The notes: generated by a model from the letters alone, not told the origin. A DNA stretch of 15,998 nucleotides from a virus (IMGVR_UViG_2558860274_000005:1-15998), one strand, 5' to 3'; shown: positions 6,917-15,228, numbered from the stretch's first letter. Numbers and translations are program-made.

Positions 6917-8230
6917 TCATTCTCCTGTTCTGCCTGTATCACTGCCCACTTCATCCAGCCCCTTAACATCCTGCCACGGCCCGTCACCAAATCTGACCTG
7001 CAAATGCTGAAACATCCCCTGAACCTGTGTGGCATCTTTGGGGTCAAGAAAGGTCAGTCCGGTGATGAGCGCACCATCTGTATCCGGGAACCAGCCATAG
7101 CTGTTTGTCTCAATAATGCTCATCGGCCCCAGACGAAAACGGATTTGTGTCTCGCCCGGGTCTCCCTTCGGCCCCTGAGGTCCGGTAGCCCCCACCGGAC
7201 CTGCCGCTCCTGTTTCTCCTTTCGGTCCCTGTGGGCCTGCCGGGCCTGCTGCACCGGTATCTCCCTTTGGCCCCTGTGGACCTGTACTTCCCGTCAGACC
7301 GGTCTCTCCCCGTTCACCCCTGTCGCCTTTCGGCCCCTGCGGGCCTGCCGGACCAGTATCTCCTCTCGGCCCCCGTTCGCCGGTTGCCCCGACAGGGCCG
7401 GTGTCACCACGCTCTCCCTTATCCCCCTTCGGCCCCTGAGGGCCGGCGGGCCCCTGTTCCCCCTTTGGCCCGGGAGGTCCCACCACGGTGGGGATTCGGT
7501 TTACGGCGTCTTCCGCCGCTATCCTGCTTTGTTCCGCTGACTGTGCGCTTTCTGCTGACTCCCGGGCTTTTTCTGCTGCGGTCGTTGCATCCCTGGCTGC
7601 ATTACCGGCTGCACTTTCTGCCGTCTTTCTTGACAATTCAGCTTCTGCTGCACTTTGTGATGACTCACTGGCTTTTTGAGCGGCCGCAGAGGCCGAGGAC
7701 GAGGACGCCTCCTCTGACTGCTTTGCAGCGGCTGCACTTTCTGCCGCCTGCCGGGCTGACTCCGATGCCTCCCCTGCTGAAGTGTCAGCATTTGCAGCGC
7801 TCTCTTCTGCCTGACTGGCTGATATGCCGGCATTCCTCGCGGACGTCTCCGCCTCTCCGGCATTCTTCTTCGCCTCCTCAGCGTGACGCGCCACCTCTTC
7901 CACCATCAGTTCAAAGCGACGCAGTGCCTCCGGCCGGACGTCATCCTCCGACATGGCACCGAGAAAATCATTCAGCGTCCCCGGTTGAGAATCTTCATAC
8001 ACGGTGATGGTCCCGGCATGTGACGGAGGAAATCCCTCCACCAACAGAATGACGCTGTACTGACCGTACTCAACGTCCATGCTGTAACGACCGGCTTCAT
8101 CCGGATTTTCAGAGGCCACCGTGTTCACCACCACCGTGCTGCTGGTCCGTCTGGCTTTCAGTTGAATGGTGCAGTTCTCTACCGGTTTTCCTGTGCCGTC
8201 TTTCAGTACACCTGAAATCTTTACTGCCAT
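6917..8230 (-). CDS. stf: Side tail fibre protein with collagen-like repeats
   Basis: N-terminus [28 protein letters not shown]...[21 protein letters not shown] matches the phage lambda Stf N-terminal domain as I recall it. Followed by an Ala/Ser/Glu-rich segment, about 37 Gly-X-Y collagen-like triplets and a distinct C-terminal domain. ATG at 8228-8230 preferred over the upstream GTG. Confidence 0.9.
7151..7489 (-). repeat. Collagen-like Gly-X-Y triplet repeat region inside stf
   Basis: Protein segment [29 protein letters not shown]...[11 protein letters not shown]. The DNA is a GC-rich 9-bp-periodic repeat (GGNCCNNNN) that also generates long spurious ORFs on the opposite strand and in other frames. 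Confidence 0.8.
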
Positions 8231-8241
8231 ATTCACCCCAC

Positions 8242-8267
8242 AAAAAAGCCCGCCTGAACCGGCGGGC
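8242..8267 (-). terminator. Rho-independent terminator between lom and stf
   Basis: On the minus strand: GCCCGCC-GGTTCA-GGCGGGC followed by TTTTTT (plus-strand stem 8248-8267, A-run 8242-8247). Confidence 0.5.
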
Positions 8268-8294
8268 TGTCATAACACTGTGTTACCTGGCTAA

Positions 8295-8846
8295 TCAGAA
8301 CTTATAACCGACACCCACGATGAAACCGTCAGTGCGCCAGTCGCCACTGCCGGAGCCTTCATAAGCAATATCAATGGCCACGGATTCGGTCGGGTTAAAC
8401 TGCACGCCAGCTCCCCACGCCAGAGACGTGTTGCTGTGGCGACCGTCATCACTTCCGGTCAGCACATCGTGCGTTTTCCCCTTGTTGTCAGTTACGCGAA
8501 GATAATCCCCGGAGAAAGTCGACACACGGCTGTAAGCCACACCCGCCATCGCATACGCGCTGAACCATTCATTCACGCGCACAGACGGCCCCGCCATTAC
8601 GCTGAACCAGCGGTTACGAACGGAATCTTCATGCCAGCGGGTATCGCTGTAACGGGTCAGCTGGCGATTCTTGTCTCCTGCATAGCTGAATGACGTCACC
8701 AGCCCCAGTGTGTCCGTAAACTCATAACGGTATTTCACGTTAATCCCGTTCAGATCATCACTGCCGGGAACGTTCGTCGAGGCATGAAGATACCCCGCGC
8801 TCAGCGTGGACTGATGTTCAGACGCCCATGCAGGCGCACCGGATAC
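8295..8846 (-). pseudogene. lom: lom-like outer-membrane protein gene (Lom/Ail/PagC family), 5'-truncated and lacking its signal peptide
   Basis: Product ...GAPAWASEHQSTLSAGYLHASTNVPGSDDLNGINVKYRYEFTDTLGLVTSF...FIVGVGYKF matches lambda Lom. Homology continues upstream of the ORF-track start (GTG 8738) to about 8846, then hits an in-frame stop at 8868-8870 with no signal peptide or start codon. Confidence 0.75.
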
Positions 8847-9078
8847 CCTGGCGACGCGCCTTACGCGTTAACCAGCCTTCTGCTTCCAGCCGTGCGATAG
8901 CCGTTCTGACGGTACTCATCCCCGCGCCAATCTGGCGGGCAATGGTTTCAATTGATGGCCAACACACACCTTCGTCATTACTGAAATCAGCCAGGCGGGC
9001 CATAATTGCCACGCTGGATAACTTCATGCCTGACGCAGCGCAACCATCCCATACATAGCCGGTTAATTTAGTGCTCAT
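8818..9078 (-). pseudogene. Replication-protein-like HTH protein, N-terminal fragment fused out of frame to lom DNA
   Basis: ATG 9076-9078 with SD GAGG. The first ~77 aa (MSTKLTGYVWDGCAASGMKLSSVAIMARLADFSNDEGVCWPSIETIARQIGAGMSTVRTAIARLEAEGWLTRKARRQG) look like the winged-helix N-terminus of prophage replication-initiation proteins. The frame then runs into lom-derived sequence and stops after 86 aa. Confidence 0.5.
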
Positions 9079-9087
9079 GACCGACCT

Positions 9088-9426
9088 CTATTTCCCTGAA
9101 TTTACGACGAAACTGTTCGAGCGGGCTGAAGCACTCATGCTCATAGCCTTCGCGGAGGTAGATAACCCGTTGTGTTTCCGGTTCCCAACGAATGACTCTG
9201 ACGGGCACTCCGTAGTGATCTTTGAACCAGCGGTTAACTTGTTGCAAAGGACTGTCTCCTTCTGCCGGTTGAAATCACCCACAGCCCACTCTGCAAATCT
9301 GTGGGTTACAATTTCCCTGTCACCTGGTACATTCACTGCATAGCAATACTCCACCTTCGCTTTTCCACCCGGTACAGGAAGCGCAATCAGTTGCGAGCGA
9401 CGGTAGTGTGTTGTTAAACTGTTCAT
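9088..9426 (-). CDS. Hypothetical early-operon protein
   Basis: 112-aa ORF whose ATG (9424-9426) overlaps the stop of the upstream gene in an ATGA arrangement. Lies 9 nt upstream of the replication-protein start. No family recognised. The plus-strand ORF 9071-9343 is treated as its shadow. Confidence 0.35.
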
Positions 9427-10007
9427 GCGTTAGTTTCTCCACAACCAGAAGCAATCGACGCCACGACGCCCGGAGCTGCACACTCGCGGGCGTTACTCTT
9501 TTCCGGCGCACAAAAAACACGAAATAACAGTGTTAAATGCTCCTGCCACTTCGCCATTACTTGGTAGCTGTTCTCTTCGATTTGCTCACGCTCAGCCTGG
9601 TCAATAACTCCATCAGCAGTTGCCTTGCGTAAGTACTGGGAATGCTTGCCAATCCATTCTATTGACTCCATCAGCCGCTGATTAATGTCACCATTGTCAA
9701 TGTCATCAATGACCACCAGCGGCACAAACACCCCATTACTACGACGGGCTATTGCATCTGTTACATGCCTGGTACCACTGGCATCCTGTAAAACCATGGC
9801 CCACTCAAGTGGAAAAATTTGATCCCCACCGCTACGCAGTCTGTTATGCAATTGATCTTTTGCTGGGGTGATATCATCAGATTTATACAAACCAAGAATT
9901 TCTGCTGCTTCCTCATAGCCATGAGGTAAATCAGCAATCGTTCTTCGTATTGCTGCCACCAGCCATGCTGGTTGTTTATCAACTTTCCATTCAGGTTCTT
10001 TACCCAC
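9423..10007 (-). CDS. Phage regulatory protein, CII-like/YdaT-like (tentative)
   Basis: 194-aa ORF with a GTG start (10005-10007) and SD GAGGA at 7-nt spacing, immediately downstream of the cro-like gene. Family assignment is from position and size, not a confident sequence match. Confidence 0.45.
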
Positions 10008-10034: not shown

Positions 10035-10232
10035 TTATGCCGCAGCACTGTTAGTCTTTTGATATAAAGACACGTCAACTTTCAGTTTCCCGTTAGTAAT
10101 TTTTTCTAACTGGTACGCTCGGCCTTCAGGAATAATCTCAGGCCACTCTGAAACAGACGGATGCTTAATACCTAGGGCTTCGGCGGTTTTACAAACTCCG
10201 CCGAAATAATTAATCACGTCGGATTTCCGCAT
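10035..10232 (-). CDS. cro: Cro-like small DNA-binding repressor
   Basis: 65-aa ORF divergent from the CI gene across an operator-rich intergenic region. SD GGAGA 5 nt upstream of ATG 10230-10232. Helix-turn-helix-like segment KTAEALGIKHPSVSEW. Confidence 0.65.
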   Translation of the reverse strand: MRKSDVINYFGGVCKTAEALGIKHPSVSEWPEIIPEGRAYQLEKITNGKLKVDVSLYQKTNSAAA

Positions 10233-10264
10233 TTCTGTCTCCCGTTAAATTACGTTAAGCAGAA

Positions 10265-10329
10265 ATGTAGGATATCCAACATGTCAATGTCAAGAATCCT
10301 ACATTGGCATGTGGTAGGATTGCCTACAT
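10265..10329. promoter_or_regulatory. OR-like operator cluster between the cro-like and CI genes
   Basis: Three related sites: ATGTAGGATATCCAACAT (10265-10282), ATGTCAAGAATCCTACAT (10287-10304, opposite orientation) and a GTAGGATTGCCTACAT palindrome (about 10313-10328). All share the half-site TAGGAT/ATCCTA. Confidence 0.5.
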
Positions 10330-10981
10330 GATGAACATGAGTGATCGTATTCGCCAAAGGCGAAAAGAACTGAACCTGACACAACAAGCACTGGCTGATT
10401 TGACTGGTGTGAACCGTGTCACGGTTACTGGATGGGAAAAGGACGACTACCAACCAAATGGAGCCAACCTTCAAGCCCTAGCCAACGCACTTAAATGCGA
10501 TCCTCTGTGGCTTGTTAGCGGAAAAGGCTCGCCTGAACCAAAGATAAATCTAAAACCTGAAATATTCGCAGTTAAAAAAGTCCCCCTCATCTCGTGGGTT
10601 CAGGCGGGTTCATGGACAATGACGGAGCCTGGTGTCAGGAAAGAAGATGCTGAAGAGTGGGTTTATACTACCGCCCTTGTATCAGAAATGGCATTTGCAC
10701 TACGGGTCCGTGGTGATTCAATGACCAATCCCCTCGGCTCACCATCGATACCAGAAGGTTCTATCGTTATCGTAGAGCCAGATATTATTGATACAGAGTG
10801 TATTAACGGAAAAATCGTTGTTGCCCATATCAATGGTGGGCAAGAAGCGACACTCAAAAAATTTGTTGAGGACTGGCCGAACAGGTATCTCGTCCCACTA
10901 AATCCTAACTATAAAACTATTGAATGCGGTGAGAACTGCAGAATAGTTGGTCTTGTCAAACAAGTAATAATGGATTTTTGA
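10328..10981 (+). CDS. cI: CI-like prophage repressor (N-terminal HTH plus C-terminal LexA-like S24 autopeptidase domain)
   Basis: HTH segment LTQQALADLTGVNRVTVTGWE. S24 catalytic Ser (RVRGDSMTNP) and Lys (EATLKKF). ATG 10328 is preceded by AGGA. The ORF track's TTG start at 10304 is probably too far upstream. Confidence 0.9.
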   Translation: MMNMSDRIRQRRKELNLTQQALADLTGVNRVTVTGWEKDDYQPNGANLQALANALKCDPLWLVSGKGSPEPKINLKPEIFAVKKVPLISWVQAGSWTMTEPGVRKEDAEEWVYTTALVSEMAFALRVRGDSMTNPLGSPSIPEGSIVIVEPDIIDTECINGKIVVAHINGGQEATLKKFVEDWPNRYLVPLNPNYKTIECGENCRIVGLVKQVIMDF

Positions 10982-11002
10982 CACATCTTCCTCACTATCG
11001 CA

Positions 11003-11027
11003 AAACCGGGGTATCCCCGGTTTTTTT
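11003..11027 (+). terminator. Rho-independent terminator downstream of cI
   Basis: CCGGGG-TAT-CCCCGG stem-loop (11006-11020) followed by TTTTTTT (11021-11027). Confidence 0.55.
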
Positions 11028-11043: not shown

Positions 11044-11097
11044 ATGTAGGATAACCAACATAAACTCTTGACACTCACATGTTTGATATCCTACATT
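11044..11097 (+). promoter_or_regulatory. pL-like early-left promoter flanked by two operator sites
   Basis: Operator ATGTAGGATAACCAACAT (11044-11061), perfect -35 TTGACA (11068-11073), operator ATGTTTGATATCCTACAT (11079-11096) overlapping a -10-like TACATT. Same operator family as the cro/cI intergenic sites. Confidence 0.45.
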
Positions 11098-11438
11098 TGT
11101 TTTTAGAGTTGTGGTGAAGGCGCAGGCTGATGCGCGAAAGACATTGCAGCTATTGCGGAAAAGAGCTGTTCGGCGGGGCAATTAAACGCCCGTGAGAGTC
11201 TGAAATAACCGCAAGCCGGAGATCAGCACCGGTCACCACAACAGCCACTGCTTTGGCGGTACCAGTTTGTACACTTGCTTCCGGCTGGTACCGCTCTTTT
11301 TACAAAACAGAGAAGAGCATCACCGGACGACGGGCTCATAACCCAATCCATCCGGGCGGCTGCCACCGCAGGTGTTCTTCTCTGTTTTGTGGAGAAACCA
11401 ACCGACCTTGCAGGGTCGATATGATGAGGAGCAGCAAA

Positions 11439-11801
11439 ATGGCTAGCGAACGCAGTACTGATGTGCAGGCATTTATCGGGGAGCTGGACGGCGGCGTATT
11501 TGAAACCAAAATCGGCGCAGTTCTCAGTGAAGTCGCTTCCGGTGTGATGAACACGAAAACCAAAGGGAAGGTCTCACTCAACCTGGAAATCGAACCATTT
11601 GATGAGAACCGTGTGAAAATCAAACACAAACTCTCATATGTTCGCCCGACTAACCGCGGGAAAATTTCCGAAGAAGACACCACCGAAACGCCGATGTATG
11701 TCAATCGCGGTGGTCGCCTGACTATTCTGCAGGAAGACCAGGGACAATTACTGACTCTTGCCGGTGAACCTGACGGAAAACTCCGCGCAGCAGGTCATTA
11801 A
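11439..11801 (+). CDS. YfdP-like prophage protein (120 aa)
   Basis: ATG 11439 preceded by AGGAG (11427-11431). The longer ORF-track version (from 11253) has an implausible Cys/Arg-rich leader. Size and position match YfdP of the KplE1/CPS-53 prophage as I recall it; assignment is from context and length. Confidence 0.6.
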   Translation: MASERSTDVQAFIGELDGGVFETKIGAVLSEVASGVMNTKTKGKVSLNLEIEPFDENRVKIKHKLSYVRPTNRGKISEEDTTETPMYVNRGGRLTILQEDQGQLLTLAGEPDGKLRAAGH

Positions 11802-11866
11802 TATCGTTCTTAATTAACTGATTATTTATCTCATCACTGAATATCTTTATATAGTGAGGACTTATT

Positions 11867-12691
11867 ATGTCTCAGAACTTAGACGCAACCGCAATTAATC
11901 AAATCCATGCCCTTATTTCTGCTCAGGGTGTTAATGAAATTATCAGTAAGATTGGTGCCGACGCAGTGGCATTACCTGAAAATTTCCGCATTCATGATCT
12001 GGAAAAATTTAATTTAAATCGCTTCCGTTTCCGTGGTGCGCTTTCCACTGCCAGCATCGATGACTTTACCCGTTATTCTAAAGATCTTGCAGATGAAGGC
12101 ACCCGCTGCTTTATCGATGCCGATAATATGCGAGCCGTCAGTGTGCTTAACCTGGGTACTATTGATGAACCAGGTCACGCAGATAACACCGCCACTCTCA
12201 AACTGAAAAAGACAGCACCGTTCTCTGCCCTGTTGTCTGTTAACGGCGAGCGTAACTCCCAGAAGTCACTGGCAGAATGGATCGAAGACTGGGCCGACTA
12301 CCTTGTGGGCTTTGATGCTAATGGTGATGCCATTCAGGCAACAAAAGCGGCTGCGGCAGTCCGTAAAATCACGATTGAAGCAAACCAGACCGCTGATTTT
12401 GAAGATAATGACTTCAGCGGCAAACGCTCCCTGATGGAGTCTGTCGAAGCGAAGACCAAAGATATTATGCCTGTGGCATTTGAATTTAAATGCGTTCCGT
12501 TTGAAGGCCTGAAAGAACGTCCGTTTAAATTACGCCTCAGCATTATCACTGGCGATCGTCCTGTACTGGTTCTGCGCATTATTCAGCTGGAAGCGGTGCA
12601 GGAAGAAATGGCTAACGAATTTCGTGATCTGCTTGTTGAGAAATTCAAAGACAGCAAAGTAGAAACCTTCATTGGTACTTTCATCGCCTGA
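11867..12691 (+). CDS. YfdQ-like protein (DUF2303 family)
   Basis: 274-aa ORF, the same length as E. coli YfdQ, in the yfdP-yfdQ-yfdR gene order. Function unknown. Confidence 0.7.
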
Positions 12692-12818
12692 TTTCATTAC
12701 TGCAAATGCCCCTGCGGGGGCATTTATGGAAACGTAATTAACTCAATAATCACCGGATGGTGAGGGCTTCCTTTTACCAGAATTCAGCGTGGTGCAGCAC
12801 ATATACGTGGAGAACAAA

Positions 12819-13355
12819 ATGTCATTTATTAAAACTTTTTCCGGGAAGCATTTTTATTATGACAGGATAAATAAAGACAACATCGATATTAACGATATCG
12901 CGGTTTCCCTTTCAAATATCTGTCGCTTTGCCGGTCATCTTTCACACTTCTACAGCGTCGCCCAACATGCGGTGCTTTGCAGCCAGCTGGTGCCGCAGGA
13001 ATTTGCTTTTGAAGCGTTAATGCATGATGCAACAGAAGCGTATTGCCAGGACATCCCCGCGCCACTGAAACGCCTTCTTCCTGACTATAAACGGATGGAA
13101 GAAAAAATAGACGCCGTAATCCGTGAGAAATACGGGTTACCCCCGGTTATGAGTACGCCCGTGAAATATGCCGATCTCATCATGCTGGCAACCGAACGCC
13201 GCGATCTCGGGCTTGATGATGGCTCTTTCTGGCCTGTACTGGAAGGCATCCCGGCAACAGAGATGTTCAAAGTTATTCCACTGTCACCAGGCCATGCCTA
13301 CGGGATGTTTATGGAACGTTTTAACGAGTTATCGGAGTTACGCAAATGCGCATGA
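12819..13355 (+). CDS. YfdR-like HD-domain phosphohydrolase (5'-deoxynucleotidase family)
   Basis: 178 aa from ATG 12819, with GGAG 6 nt upstream. Conserved HD-domain residues are visible (His in CRFAGHLSHFYSVAQH, and the HD pair in EALMHDATEAY). Length matches YfdR. Confidence 0.8.
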   Translation: MSFIKTFSGKHFYYDRINKDNIDINDIAVSLSNICRFAGHLSHFYSVAQHAVLCSQLVPQEFAFEALMHDATEAYCQDIPAPLKRLLPDYKRMEEKIDAVIREKYGLPPVMSTPVKYADLIMLATERRDLGLDDGSFWPVLEGIPATEMFKVIPLSPGHAYGMFMERFNELSELRKCA

Positions 13356-13867
13356 ATGTTTTCGAAATGGAAGGGTTTCTTCGCGGGAAATGTGTACCGC
13401 GAGATCTGAAAGTGAACGAAACAAATGCTGAGTACCTAGTACGTAAGTTCGACGCGCTTGAAGCTAAATGCGAGACGCTGGCGGCGGAGAATGCGCGGCT
13501 GAATAAATTTATCGTACAGAGTTGCTATGTGTTTAATGGCGAGCAGGATGAAATATCTGATGCGTATATCTGCGCAGCAGGCGGAGGTATGCCGCAAATT
13601 CCAGCCACCGATGCTTTTCTGGCTGAAATTCGTGCGGAGGCTCGCAACGAGGGAATTAACTATACCGCAAGTCGTCTTGCTGCAGCTTTCAACCACGGAT
13701 TTATCAATAAGTCTTTACGTGAAGTTTTCGACGTTACGCGCATGATTCTGTCAGCGAAAGAAGAGTTAGCTAATGAACCGCATCCGATTGATGGCCTGTC
13801 CGGTGAATATGCGGAGAAATCCCTTGAAGAATGGGCGGAGCAGATTCGCAAAGGAGGCAACCAGTGA
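13346..13867 (+). CDS. Hypothetical early-operon protein (possibly Ead/Ea22-like)
   Basis: 173-aa ORF translationally coupled to the upstream gene (ATGA overlap with its stop at 13353-13355). Predicted coiled-coil segment (EAKCETLAAENARLNKF). Family call tentative. Confidence 0.45.
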   Translation: MRMNVFEMEGFLRGKCVPRDLKVNETNAEYLVRKFDALEAKCETLAAENARLNKFIVQSCYVFNGEQDEISDAYICAAGGGMPQIPATDAFLAEIRAEARNEGINYTASRLAAAFNHGFINKSLREVFDVTRMILSAKEELANEPHPIDGLSGEYAEKSLEEWAEQIRKGGNQ

Positions 13868-14352
13868 CTGGACATGCAGCAATCCTCGACATGTGCTGTG
13901 GCAGTCGCATGTTCTGGTTCGATAAGAATGACGACCGGGCGATATTTAGCGACATCAGAAAGGAAGAGCACACATTATGTGATGGACGACGCCTGATAAT
14001 TAGCCCTGACCTGATAGCAGATTTTCGTGCATTACCATTTGCAGACGCATCGTTTCCGGTTGTTGTATTCGACCCTCCGCATCTTGAGCGTGTTGGTGAT
14101 AACGCCTGGATGGGAAAGAAATATGGACGGCTGAATAAAGATACCTGGCGTGATGATTTGCGGCAGGGATTTAAAGAAGCCTTTCGTGTGTTGTGGCCAA
14201 ACGGTGTTCTGGTTTTTAAATGGAATGAAACGCAAATACCGGTAAGCCAGATTTTGGCACTGACAGACAGAAAACCTGTTATCGGTCAACGAACAGGAAA
14301 AAACGATAAAACCCACTGGATTATTTTTATGAAAGAGGCAACCAGTGAGTAA
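13864..14352 (+). CDS. Putative phage DNA methyltransferase (SAM-dependent, amino-methyltransferase type)
   Basis: GTG 13864 overlaps the upstream stop (GTGA) and is preceded by AGGAGG (13852-13857). Product has a SAM-binding-like motif (ILDMCCGSRMF) and a DPPH tetrapeptide (VVVFDPPH) resembling motif IV, (D/N/S)PP(Y/F/W/H), of N6-adenine/N4-cytosine methyltransferases. Confidence 0.5.
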   Translation: MTGHAAILDMCCGSRMFWFDKNDDRAIFSDIRKEEHTLCDGRRLIISPDLIADFRALPFADASFPVVVFDPPHLERVGDNAWMGKKYGRLNKDTWRDDLRQGFKEAFRVLWPNGVLVFKWNETQIPVSQILALTDRKPVIGQRTGKNDKTHWIIFMKEATSE

Positions 14353-14656
14353 TTATCTGTACTGGTCTGGCTTAGTGGCTAACATCGCGCTCATGTTGTT
14401 CGTGGCTCTTTGCATCTGGGTTTGGTTTATCTGGCCTTTTGTAGAGGCCATGAGCATAACTCGGTGCTTTATTTGCGCATCAAAGACTTCTGGATGCAAA
14501 CCAACTGTAAGAGCAATTATCAGAACTTTAAAATACTGGTATCTGGATTTGCTTTTCGGCAGGGGCTGGACGCGAATTAGTAACCGCCAGTTTGAATGGG
14601 AAGGCGTCGGTAACTGGCGAATTCACAGCAGCAAAGAAACGCAGGAGGTGAAGTAA
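14345..14656 (+). CDS. Small predicted membrane protein
   Basis: 103-aa ORF with a GTG start overlapping the upstream gene end; hydrophobic N-terminal segment (LVANIALMLFVALCIWVWFIWPFV). Confidence 0.4.
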   Translation: MSNYLYWSGLVANIALMLFVALCIWVWFIWPFVEAMSITRCFICASKTSGCKPTVRAIIRTLKYWYLDLLFGRGWTRISNRQFEWEGVGNWRIHSSKETQEVK

Positions 14657-15228
14657 TGAATAACTTAATGATCGACCTTGAGACGATGGGGAAAAATAAG
14701 GATGCACCGATCGTTTCCATTGGCGCGGTGTTCTTCACTCCAGAAACCGGAGACATCGGACAAGAATTCTATACGGTTGTTAGCCTGGAAAGTGCTATGG
14801 GGCAAGGAGCTACACCTGACGGCGATACCATCCTGTGGTGGTTGAAACAAAGCCCTGAAGCACGAGCTGCAATCTGTATTGATGATACTTTGTCGATCAG
14901 CGATGCTCTCTCAGAACTAAATCATTTCATTAACCGGCACGCAGACAATACGAAATATTTAAAAGTCTGGGGTAACGGAGCCACCTTCGACAACGTAATT
15001 TTACGTGGAGCTTATGAGCGAGCAGGACAAATCTGCCCGTGGGCATACTGGAATGACCACGATGTACGCACGATCGTTACGCTTGGGTGTTCCATCGGAT
15101 TCGACCCCAAAATGGACATGCCTTTCGATGGCGAACGGCACAACGCCCTGGCTGATGCCCGTCATCAGGCAAAATATGTTTCCGCTATCTGGCAGAAATT
15201 AATTCCTGCCACCAGCACAGAATTATGA
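14656..15228 (+). CDS. DnaQ-like (DEDD family) 3'-5' exonuclease
   Basis: 190-aa ORF with the Exo I motif (MIDLETMG), central acidic motif (FDNVIL) and Exo III H-x4-D motif (HNALADA). ATG overlaps the upstream stop (TAATG-type coupling). Confidence 0.8.
   Translation: MNNLMIDLETMGKNKDAPIVSIGAVFFTPETGDIGQEFYTVVSLESAMGQGATPDGDTILWWLKQSPEARAAICIDDTLSISDALSELNHFINRHADNTKYLKVWGNGATFDNVILRGAYERAGQICPWAYWNDHDVRTIVTLGCSIGFDPKMDMPFDGERHNALADARHQAKYVSAIWQKLIPATSTEL

Follow-up and report, generated by a model that had tools for sequence, protein, structure and literature searches.

It was reported in Genome Research in 2025 that 22% of enterobacterial lambdoid phages are without a recombination (Rec) module, that the early-left operons of such phages often carry a trio of yfdP, yfdQ and an HD-hydrolase gene, and that genes for DnaQ-type nucleases occur sporadically near int (PMC12315714). 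The cryptic prophage CPS-53 (KplE1) of Escherichia coli K-12 encodes such genes in the order yfdP-yfdQ-yfdR-yfdS-yfdT-ypdJ-torI. Noguchi and Katayama found that K-12 YfdR binds DnaA through a contact with Phe46 in domain I and impedes DiaA and DnaB binding, that over-initiation mutants are suppressed, and initiation at oriC in wild-type cells is inhibited, by multicopy yfdQRS or yfdQRT, and proposed an ancestral phage role, analogous to that of lambda P and acting on DnaA (PMC4776307). Overproduction of YfdQ is reported in a preprint to boost a T1-like phage (10.1101/413146). Here we describe a locus with the gene order and strand logic of CPS-53, located at positions 11439-15228 of a viral sequence of 15,998 nucleotides (IMGVR_UViG_2558860274_000005:1-15998), the whole of which is referred to as the window. 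As judged from its sequence, the region belongs to a defective lambdoid prophage, one of the CPS-53(KplE1)/SfV/ST64B/mEp460 type that carries no Red-like recombination module, and forms its early-left (PL) operon; it is best explained as a general DNA-metabolism and host-control accessory operon rather than as a dedicated anti-restriction locus.

The products of the plus-strand open reading frames (ORFs) at 11439-15228 were compared with profiles from Pfam, PHROGs, NCBIfam and PADLOC, and with the proteins of E. coli K-12. The region comprised a compact co-directional run of seven ORFs followed by an excisionase gene, with a Shine-Dalgarno-like sequence before each gene and overlapping start and stop codons for several, and all of the ORFs were intact and full-length relative to their Pfam and PHROGs profiles. 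Every gene listed here by a first-pass annotation, prepared from the sequence alone, was recovered on the plus strand at the same coordinates, with start codons corrected for yfdR and for the methyltransferase gene, though the seventh gene (13346-13867; 173 amino acids) had been omitted. The designation 'YfdP/YfdQ-like' was too modest, both being essentially the K-12 alleles. The start of the excisionase gene was adopted from the RefSeq annotation of a 98.7%-identical locus. The operon, in order, is composed of:

11439-11801, plus strand: yfdP, 120 amino acids (99.2% identical to K-12 YfdP; phrog_204, E = 1e-49)
11867-12691, plus strand: yfdQ, 274 amino acids, DUF2303 (98.9% identical to K-12 YfdQ; PF10065, E = 2e-92)
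12819-13355, plus strand: yfdR, 178 amino acids, putative HD-domain 5'-deoxynucleotidase, 12819 being the best start (96.6% identical to K-12 YfdR)
13346-13867, plus strand: Ea22/YfdS-type mosaic gene, 173 amino acids, YfdS N-terminus and Ea22-like body (phrog_614, E = 3e-78, full length)
13854-13867, plus strand: left copy of a 14-bp junction repeat, GAGGCAACCAGTGA, holding a Shine-Dalgarno sequence, a GTG start and a TGA stop
13864-14352, plus strand: minimal class I S-adenosylmethionine (SAM)-dependent amino-methyltransferase gene, 162 amino acids, GTG at 13864 being the best start (phrog_954, E = 7e-89; PADLOC MTase_II, E = 7e-74)
14335-14348, plus strand: right copy of the junction repeat, a perfect match to the left copy
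14345-14656, plus strand: small basic membrane protein gene, 103 amino acids, isoelectric point 9.5 (phrog_2531, E = 4e-27)
14656-15228, plus strand: DEDDh 3'-5' exonuclease gene of the Rv2179c/T4 DexA type, 190 amino acids (PF16473, E = 1.9e-74, positions 1-177 of 177)
15265-15537, plus strand: PrtN-type excisionase gene, the last of the operon (PF11112, E = 4e-24; phrog_1300 excisionase, E = 2.5e-40)

Assignment of this run as an early-left operon, which agrees with the first-pass annotation, was based upon a left operator and promoter (OL/PL) located downstream of a same-strand S24 cI-type repressor gene, together with the distal excisionase gene. The features upstream of yfdP are:

9423-10007, minus strand: YmfL/CII-like gene, facing the repressor gene
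10035-10232, minus strand: P22_Cro-type gene, facing the repressor gene
10304-10981, plus strand: cI-type repressor gene, HTH_3 and Peptidase_S24 (Peptidase_S24, E = 4e-25; HTH_3, E = 1.2e-15; phrog_4 transcriptional repressor, E = 2e-59)
11044-11097, plus strand: OL/PL, operator copies at 11044-11061 and 11079-11096 and a promoter-like site
11098-11438, plus strand: structured leader of 340 nucleotides between PL and yfdP (minimum free energy -136 kcal/mol)

An 18-bp operator with the consensus ATGTAGGATAWCCAACAT was present in four copies, comprising the two at OL and two at the right operator (OR; 10265-10282 and 10314-10330). The promoter-like PL site, TTGACA-18-TACATT (11068-11097, plus strand), is overlapped by the second OL copy, reads into the operon and is the mirror image of the right promoter (PR) site that reads into cro (10293-10264, minus strand); a 40-nucleotide arm at 11066-11105 was 85% complementary to the PR region at 10256-10295. 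Promoter and operator calls are consensus matches only, and the layout, with the operon placed downstream of the repressor gene, on its strand and opposite to cro, is that of classical OR/PR and OL/PL. An inverted repeat capable of forming a hairpin was located at 11002-11024, downstream of the repressor gene. The leader folded better than 100 shuffled controls (z = -5.15), with several long hairpins. No Rfam family was matched at gathering score in the leader or anywhere else in the window, and no ORF or Rfam match resembling an N-type antiterminator was found in the leader region; it could conceivably hold an antitermination, processing or attenuation element.

Upon loss of the repressor, a single transcript would be expected to run from 11098 through yfdP, yfdQ, yfdR, the Ea22/YfdS-type gene and the methyltransferase, membrane protein, exonuclease and xis genes. 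We regard it as reasonably probable that this is an ordinary repressor-controlled PL operon, in which a conserved core serves host takeover and control of DNA replication and the more distal genes are accessories that can be exchanged. Judged by the K-12 proteins, to which its products are 97-99% identical, the core would act on the host at the level of DNA replication, with YfdR occupying domain I of DnaA (Phe46) in competition with DiaA and DnaB and, in company with YfdQ plus either YfdS or YfdT, lowering initiation at oriC. The methyltransferase would most likely N-methylate nucleic acid, probably phage DNA, and the DexA-like exonuclease would presumably degrade single-stranded DNA or oligonucleotides to mononucleotides.

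The YfdR product, whose K-12 counterpart is named a 5'-deoxynucleotidase in RefSeq, matched phrog_318 ('deoxyribonucleoside 5' monophosphate phosphatase', E = 3e-111) and PDB entry 2gz4 (E = 2e-13), retained His50 and His69-Asp70 of the H...HD...D metal-binding motif, and scored 24.2 bits against PF12917, just below the cut-off of 25.9. Earlier enzymology indicates that the deoxynucleoside monophosphate (dNMP) phosphatase activity of YfdR is weak, with nucleotide affinities much lower than those of the housekeeping 5'-deoxynucleotidase YfbR (summarised in PMC4776307). In the Ea22/YfdS-type product, the first 45 amino acids were 96% identical to K-12 YfdS, the C-terminal domain differed, and residues 29-54 gave a sub-threshold match to the leucine-zipper family HALZ (E = 0.0075; 16.8 bits against a cut-off of 28.1). 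At the 98.7%-identical RefSeq locus (NZ_CP083512; locus L001, 8147-8281 and 9154-9456) the annotation treats this gene as a pseudogene, truncated, and leaves out the membrane protein gene, which is probably an annotation artefact, both being intact ORFs with full-length PHROGs matches in the window.

Several points weigh against a role in replication control. The effect upon DnaA was seen only on overexpression, its authors allow for an artefact, and deletion of yfdQRST had no initiation phenotype (PMC4776307). The K-12 effect also required YfdS or YfdT, whilst comparison with the K-12 proteins revealed no YfdT homologue in the operon and only residues 1-45 of YfdS. Moreover, the prophage is a remnant, with a truncated replication gene and its structural genes lost, and expression of its operon in this host may never occur.

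YfdP and YfdQ form a conserved pair, for which tblastn searches of phage records returned 180 and 184 records, respectively, with near-identical taxon counts. In every record present in both lists yfdP was located directly upstream of yfdQ, including those of Vibrio and Xanthomonas phages at 37-42% identity, and the pair was found in Vibrio, Xanthomonas, Pseudomonas and Thalassomonas phages, often amid genes for Erf, recombinase, exonuclease and single-stranded DNA-binding protein (SSB). For instance, in Vibrio phage 66E30.1 the gene order is Erf-like, recombinase, exonuclease, yfdP, yfdQ and SSB (coordinates of the pair in distant phages: locus L008, 3540-4828; locus L009, 3574-4828), and recombinase and exonuclease genes are found close to the pair in Xanthomonas phage Sopo. 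The DEDDh exonuclease, when examined for the same association, was found not to travel with YfdP-YfdQ in distant phages. Window YfdQ matched PDB entry 9o7m, 'YfdQ Protein', which holds 36 chains (E = 4e-44), and the 9o7m sequence appears by eye very similar to the Sopo homologue, most aligned positions matching. No paper accompanying this entry was found, a Xanthomonas phage cryo-electron microscopy preprint making no mention of YfdQ, and PDB searches with YfdP gave no match. A DUF2303 protein of Burkholderia phage JC1 was reported to be virion-associated (PMC9144972). These observations suggest that YfdP-YfdQ is an oligomeric, DNA-associated two-protein module.

The methyltransferase gene was examined through an alignment of 52 diverse homologues (40-96% identity) and an AlphaFold2 model built on the same alignment (predicted local distance difference test score 93.8). 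Residues D9, C12, D30, R32, P48, D70-P71-P72-H73, E105, R108, G114, K119, W120 and P138 were invariant in all 52 homologues, with the DPPH motif at residues 70-73 (bases 14071-14082). In the model, strand 1 is followed by LDxCCGS, strand 2 ends in D30 and strand 4 leads directly into DPPH, and this modelled arrangement of strands and motifs is that of amino-methyltransferases. Loss of catalytic motifs on proper alignment, which the first-pass annotation had given as grounds for rejecting its reading, was not found, the motifs being kept in both alignment and model. The protein consists of the catalytic core alone, without a target-recognition domain, and the unit of homology in the family is approximately 150 amino acids throughout. 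No Pfam DNA-methylase family was matched at threshold, with 10 of the 52 homologues matching PF01555 weakly (best E = 1.3e-4), and there was no DNA methyltransferase among the top 50-60 PDB fold matches to the model, the nearest solved folds being those of RNA, protein or small-molecule methyltransferases. A single-sequence PDB search returned noise only, a PDB profile search returned weak matches to generic methyltransferases and to an N2-methylguanosine (m2G) transfer RNA methyltransferase, and the viral fold library held one close homologue of the model. The REBASE-derived PADLOC models MTase_II and oMTase matched the protein strongly, which speaks for a DNA target, and no restriction enzyme gene was adjacent to it. 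The motif and the orphan status reported by the first-pass annotation stood. Since there is neither a target-recognition domain nor a DNA methyltransferase among the top structural neighbours, the label 'DNA' methyltransferase is an annotation, not a result. DNA N-methylation is, by inference, the most likely activity. The enzyme may however be a low-specificity nucleic-acid methylase, or may act upon RNA or protein, rather than being an ordinary sequence-specific DNA methyltransferase.

This small methyltransferase family comprises 2039 clusters at 50% identity, and no published report of its experimental characterisation was found. Members were retrieved from 256 phage records spanning many host phyla, with conservation extending across phages of Proteobacteria, Firmicutes, Actinobacteria and Bacteroidetes, and identities of 50-64% were kept in phages of Gordonia, Listeria (A118 ORF50), Streptococcus, Staphylococcus, Porphyromonas, Bacteroides, Vibrio and Acinetobacter. 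One distant homologue adjoins a 5-methylcytosine (m5C) DNA methylase gene. A 44%-identical homologue (locus L007, 5001-5456) was located in a 5.9-kb ENA contig with microvirus features, k147_2848839, which also carries a gene with a Phage_F domain (microvirus capsid). Both settings likewise speak for a DNA target. In other instances, two small methyltransferase domains occur as a natural tandem fusion (protein P0001, 294 amino acids), or two adjacent methyltransferase genes occupy this spot in several phages, which may be a sign that the enzyme acts as a dimer.

Within the operon, the methyltransferase gene is bounded by the two perfect copies of GAGGCAACCAGTGA, for which 0.09 would be expected by chance. 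Phage 720R4 harbours a lone copy (locus L005, 4372-4385) fused directly to the membrane protein gene, representing an empty site, and phage mEp460 harbours a lone copy (locus L002, 7929-7942) fused to a different gene, with no cassette. Among 5426 complete E. coli genomes, 945 (17%) carried the cassette, O157:H7 strains included, whilst CPS-53 of K-12, mEp460 and 720R4 lacked it. The repeat looks like a recombination joint for the swapping of early-left gene cassettes. As the methyltransferase cassette is variable, it cannot serve to define what the conserved operon does.

Of the distal genes, that for the membrane protein encodes one hydrophobic segment (residues 11-29; Kyte-Doolittle 2.51), and tblastn searches with its product returned 462 phage records (identity 29-39%, coverage 90-97%). 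The exonuclease retained the motifs IDLET, FDNVIL and H-x4-D and matched PDB entry 8kel, 'Exodeoxyribonuclease' (E = 1e-10). Just past the excisionase gene, and convergent with the operon, lies a gene for a homologue of the YafO-family type II toxin (15564-15998, minus strand; PF13957, E = 2e-21), any antitoxin partner of which would fall beyond the window; a hairpin resembling a bidirectional terminator is located at 15548-15565.

In a megablast search, the 4.4-kb region matched, at least in part, 3535 of the 5426 complete E. coli genomes, with at least 80% of it covered in 96 and a best identity of 98.7%, and it also matched 166 phage records, including those of mEp460, Shiga toxin (Stx)-converting phages and Shigella phages. 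The same operon is annotated in RefSeq E. coli genomes and in phages mEp460 and 720R4, the names at the best locus being 'protein YfdP', 'YfdQ family protein', '5'-deoxynucleotidase', 'class I SAM-dependent methyltransferase', '3'-5' exonuclease' and 'pyocin activator PrtN family protein'. The operon is therefore already known, and its class has been described (PMC12315714), so that the under-characterised biology claimed by the first-pass annotation holds for individual genes and not for the operon as such. As found, the operon matters little, being annotated in RefSeq, present in most E. coli genomes and of a described class; its value lies in reminding us that even very common genes of prophages, yfdP, yfdQ, the minimal methyltransferase gene and that of the small membrane protein among them, are still without a function.

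The remainder of the window indicates that the prophage is a remnant. Signs of decay were located at 6307-9078, where a C-terminal fragment of IS66, a lom gene lacking its N-terminus and an 86-amino acid stump of a replication-initiator (HTH_36) gene were found, and homology to other E. coli genomes breaks at approximately position 8846. A tail-fibre gene is also present in the window, and no lysis, head or replication module was found between its annotated remnant genes, nor were any transfer RNA genes found in it. Other features are:

1-744: host short-chain dehydrogenase gene
1388-2485: integrase gene, at the other prophage end from the excisionase gene
2818-6222, plus strand: DUF4765 gene, 1134 amino acids (G+C 28-37%, much below the surroundings)

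The DUF4765 gene, situated between the integrase gene and the IS66 fragment, looks like foreign cargo. Chi abundance has been linked to lambdoid phages without a Rec module in published work; three Chi octamers, GCTGGTGG, were present on the minus strand (9713, 9956 and 15209) and none on the plus strand of this remnant, which is too short for their abundance to be judged.

A reading along the lines of the first-pass annotation is that of mainly a counter-defence locus, with phage DNA shielded from restriction by the orphan methyltransferase and nucleotide-based defences opposed by the HD hydrolase and exonuclease. The intact SAM-binding and DPPH motifs, the REBASE-derived PADLOC matches and the lack of a neighbouring restriction enzyme gene are consistent with this, as is the occurrence of the family in 256 phage records across many host phyla, and the homologues beside an m5C DNA methylase gene or in the contig with microvirus features would suit protection of self DNA. 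However, none of the seven products matched Ocr, ArdA, Ral, Dar or any other known anti-restriction or anti-defence family in Pfam, PHROGs or PADLOC, and the methyltransferase models aside, PADLOC identified no defence system in the operon. The cassette is variable and missing from K-12 CPS-53, mEp460 and 720R4, and its enzyme has no target-recognition domain and has RNA, protein or small-molecule methyltransferases as its nearest folds. Nor was the proposed action against nucleotide depletion supported: YfdR acts weakly and on dNMPs, the dephosphorylation of which would not obviously counter defences that deplete deoxynucleoside triphosphates. Literature and profile matches offered nothing linking the yfd cluster to restriction evasion or nucleotide-depletion defences, the published phenotype being replication control (PMC4776307). 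A counter-defence locus is accordingly judged unlikely, and an anti-restriction function survives for the methyltransferase cassette only, where it too is doubtful.

It is more improbable still that YfdP-YfdQ, perhaps with the 3'-5' exonuclease, forms a hidden DNA-end or single-strand DNA recombination system standing in for Red, even though the genes sit in the Red position, the adjacent pair keeps company with Erf, recombinase, exonuclease and SSB genes in 66E30.1 and with recombinase and exonuclease genes in Sopo, the 36 chains of the YfdQ homologue in one PDB entry suggest a large oligomer, and a K-12 yfdQ mutant was reported to be weakly sensitive to methyl methanesulfonate. None of the operon products matched the Red/Rec families Exo/Beta/Gam, Erf, RecT, Sak or Abc (Pfam, PHROGs and NCBIfam), which bears out the view of the first-pass annotation that these genes stand in place of canonical Red genes, a point already published (PMC12315714), and leaves YfdP-YfdQ without sequence similarity to annealing-protein families. 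The exonuclease is not conserved alongside the pair, a separate and complete Rec module co-occurs with the trio in phage ArgO145, and this class of phages relies on RecBCD and Chi, the authors of that study concluding that a recombination role is unlikely (PMC12315714). An equally improbable alternative is that these are cryptic prophage genes domesticated for host benefit, such as tolerance of oxidative stress or DNA damage. The prophage is indeed a remnant, like CPS-53 in K-12, its operon ORFs are nonetheless all intact and full-length, and deletion of K-12 yfdQ or yfdS was reported to raise sensitivity to hydrogen peroxide (cited in PMC4776307). Against this, with repressor and operators intact the operon would be expected to be silent in the lysogen, and conservation needs no host benefit because phage genome records, including those of mEp460, SfIV, cdtI and Stx2c phages, carry the same genes at 96-99% identity. 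Lastly, there is a small chance that the methyltransferase without a recognition domain, or the YfdP-YfdQ pair, has an unanticipated activity; the pair may form a high-order assembly of two proteins on phage DNA, possibly in virions, with a part in DNA entry, protection or processing. Were YfdP-YfdQ such a DNA-handling complex, it would fill a gap in lambdoid phage biology and help to explain the handling of DNA by 'Rec-less' phages, and a low-specificity DNA methylase, or a non-DNA methylase, would likewise fill a gap in that biology.

Amongst the known systems, CPS-53 shares with the window YfdP, YfdQ and YfdR at the identities given above (over the full length for YfdQ and YfdR), the first 45 residues of YfdS in the fourth gene, and an excisionase gene at the end of the operon with an integrase gene at the opposite end of the prophage (torI and intS in K-12). 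CPS-53 alone encodes YfdS with a DUF551 C-terminus, YfdT, YpdJ and TorI, whilst the Ea22-like C-terminus, methyltransferase cassette, membrane protein, DEDDh exonuclease and PrtN-type excisionase are found in the window only, which has also kept the repressor and PL region lost from CPS-53. Phages mEp460, SfV, ST64B and LLS, of the class with no Rec module (PMC12315714), carry the yfdP-yfdQ-HD hydrolase core behind PL, lack Red, Erf and Gam, and have a DnaQ-type exonuclease gene adjoining xis, as does the window, the prophage of which is, unlike these phages, defective. mEp460 matched 71% of the region at 97% identity, and differs in the variable middle, where the methyltransferase and membrane protein genes of the window are replaced by four small genes, an Ea22-like gene and a DUF551 gene.

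At the level of single proteins, the methyltransferase resembles the gamma-type (D/N)PP(Y/F/H) amino-methyltransferases, which include N6-adenine and N4-cytosine DNA enzymes and the Trm11, RsmC, RsmD, PrmC and N6AMT1 group, in its class I Rossmann fold, its glycine-loop motif I preceding motif IV, the DPPH after strand 4 and the acidic residue ending strand 2. It differs from them in its size of 162 amino acids, without a target-recognition or substrate-binding domain, and in the replacement of the helices between its first strands by loops and a hairpin. The exonuclease has a full-length PF16473 match, the DEDDh motifs and a similar size in common with T4 DexA and Mycobacterium Rv2179c, although its gene, unlike theirs, adjoins xis in the operon of a temperate phage.

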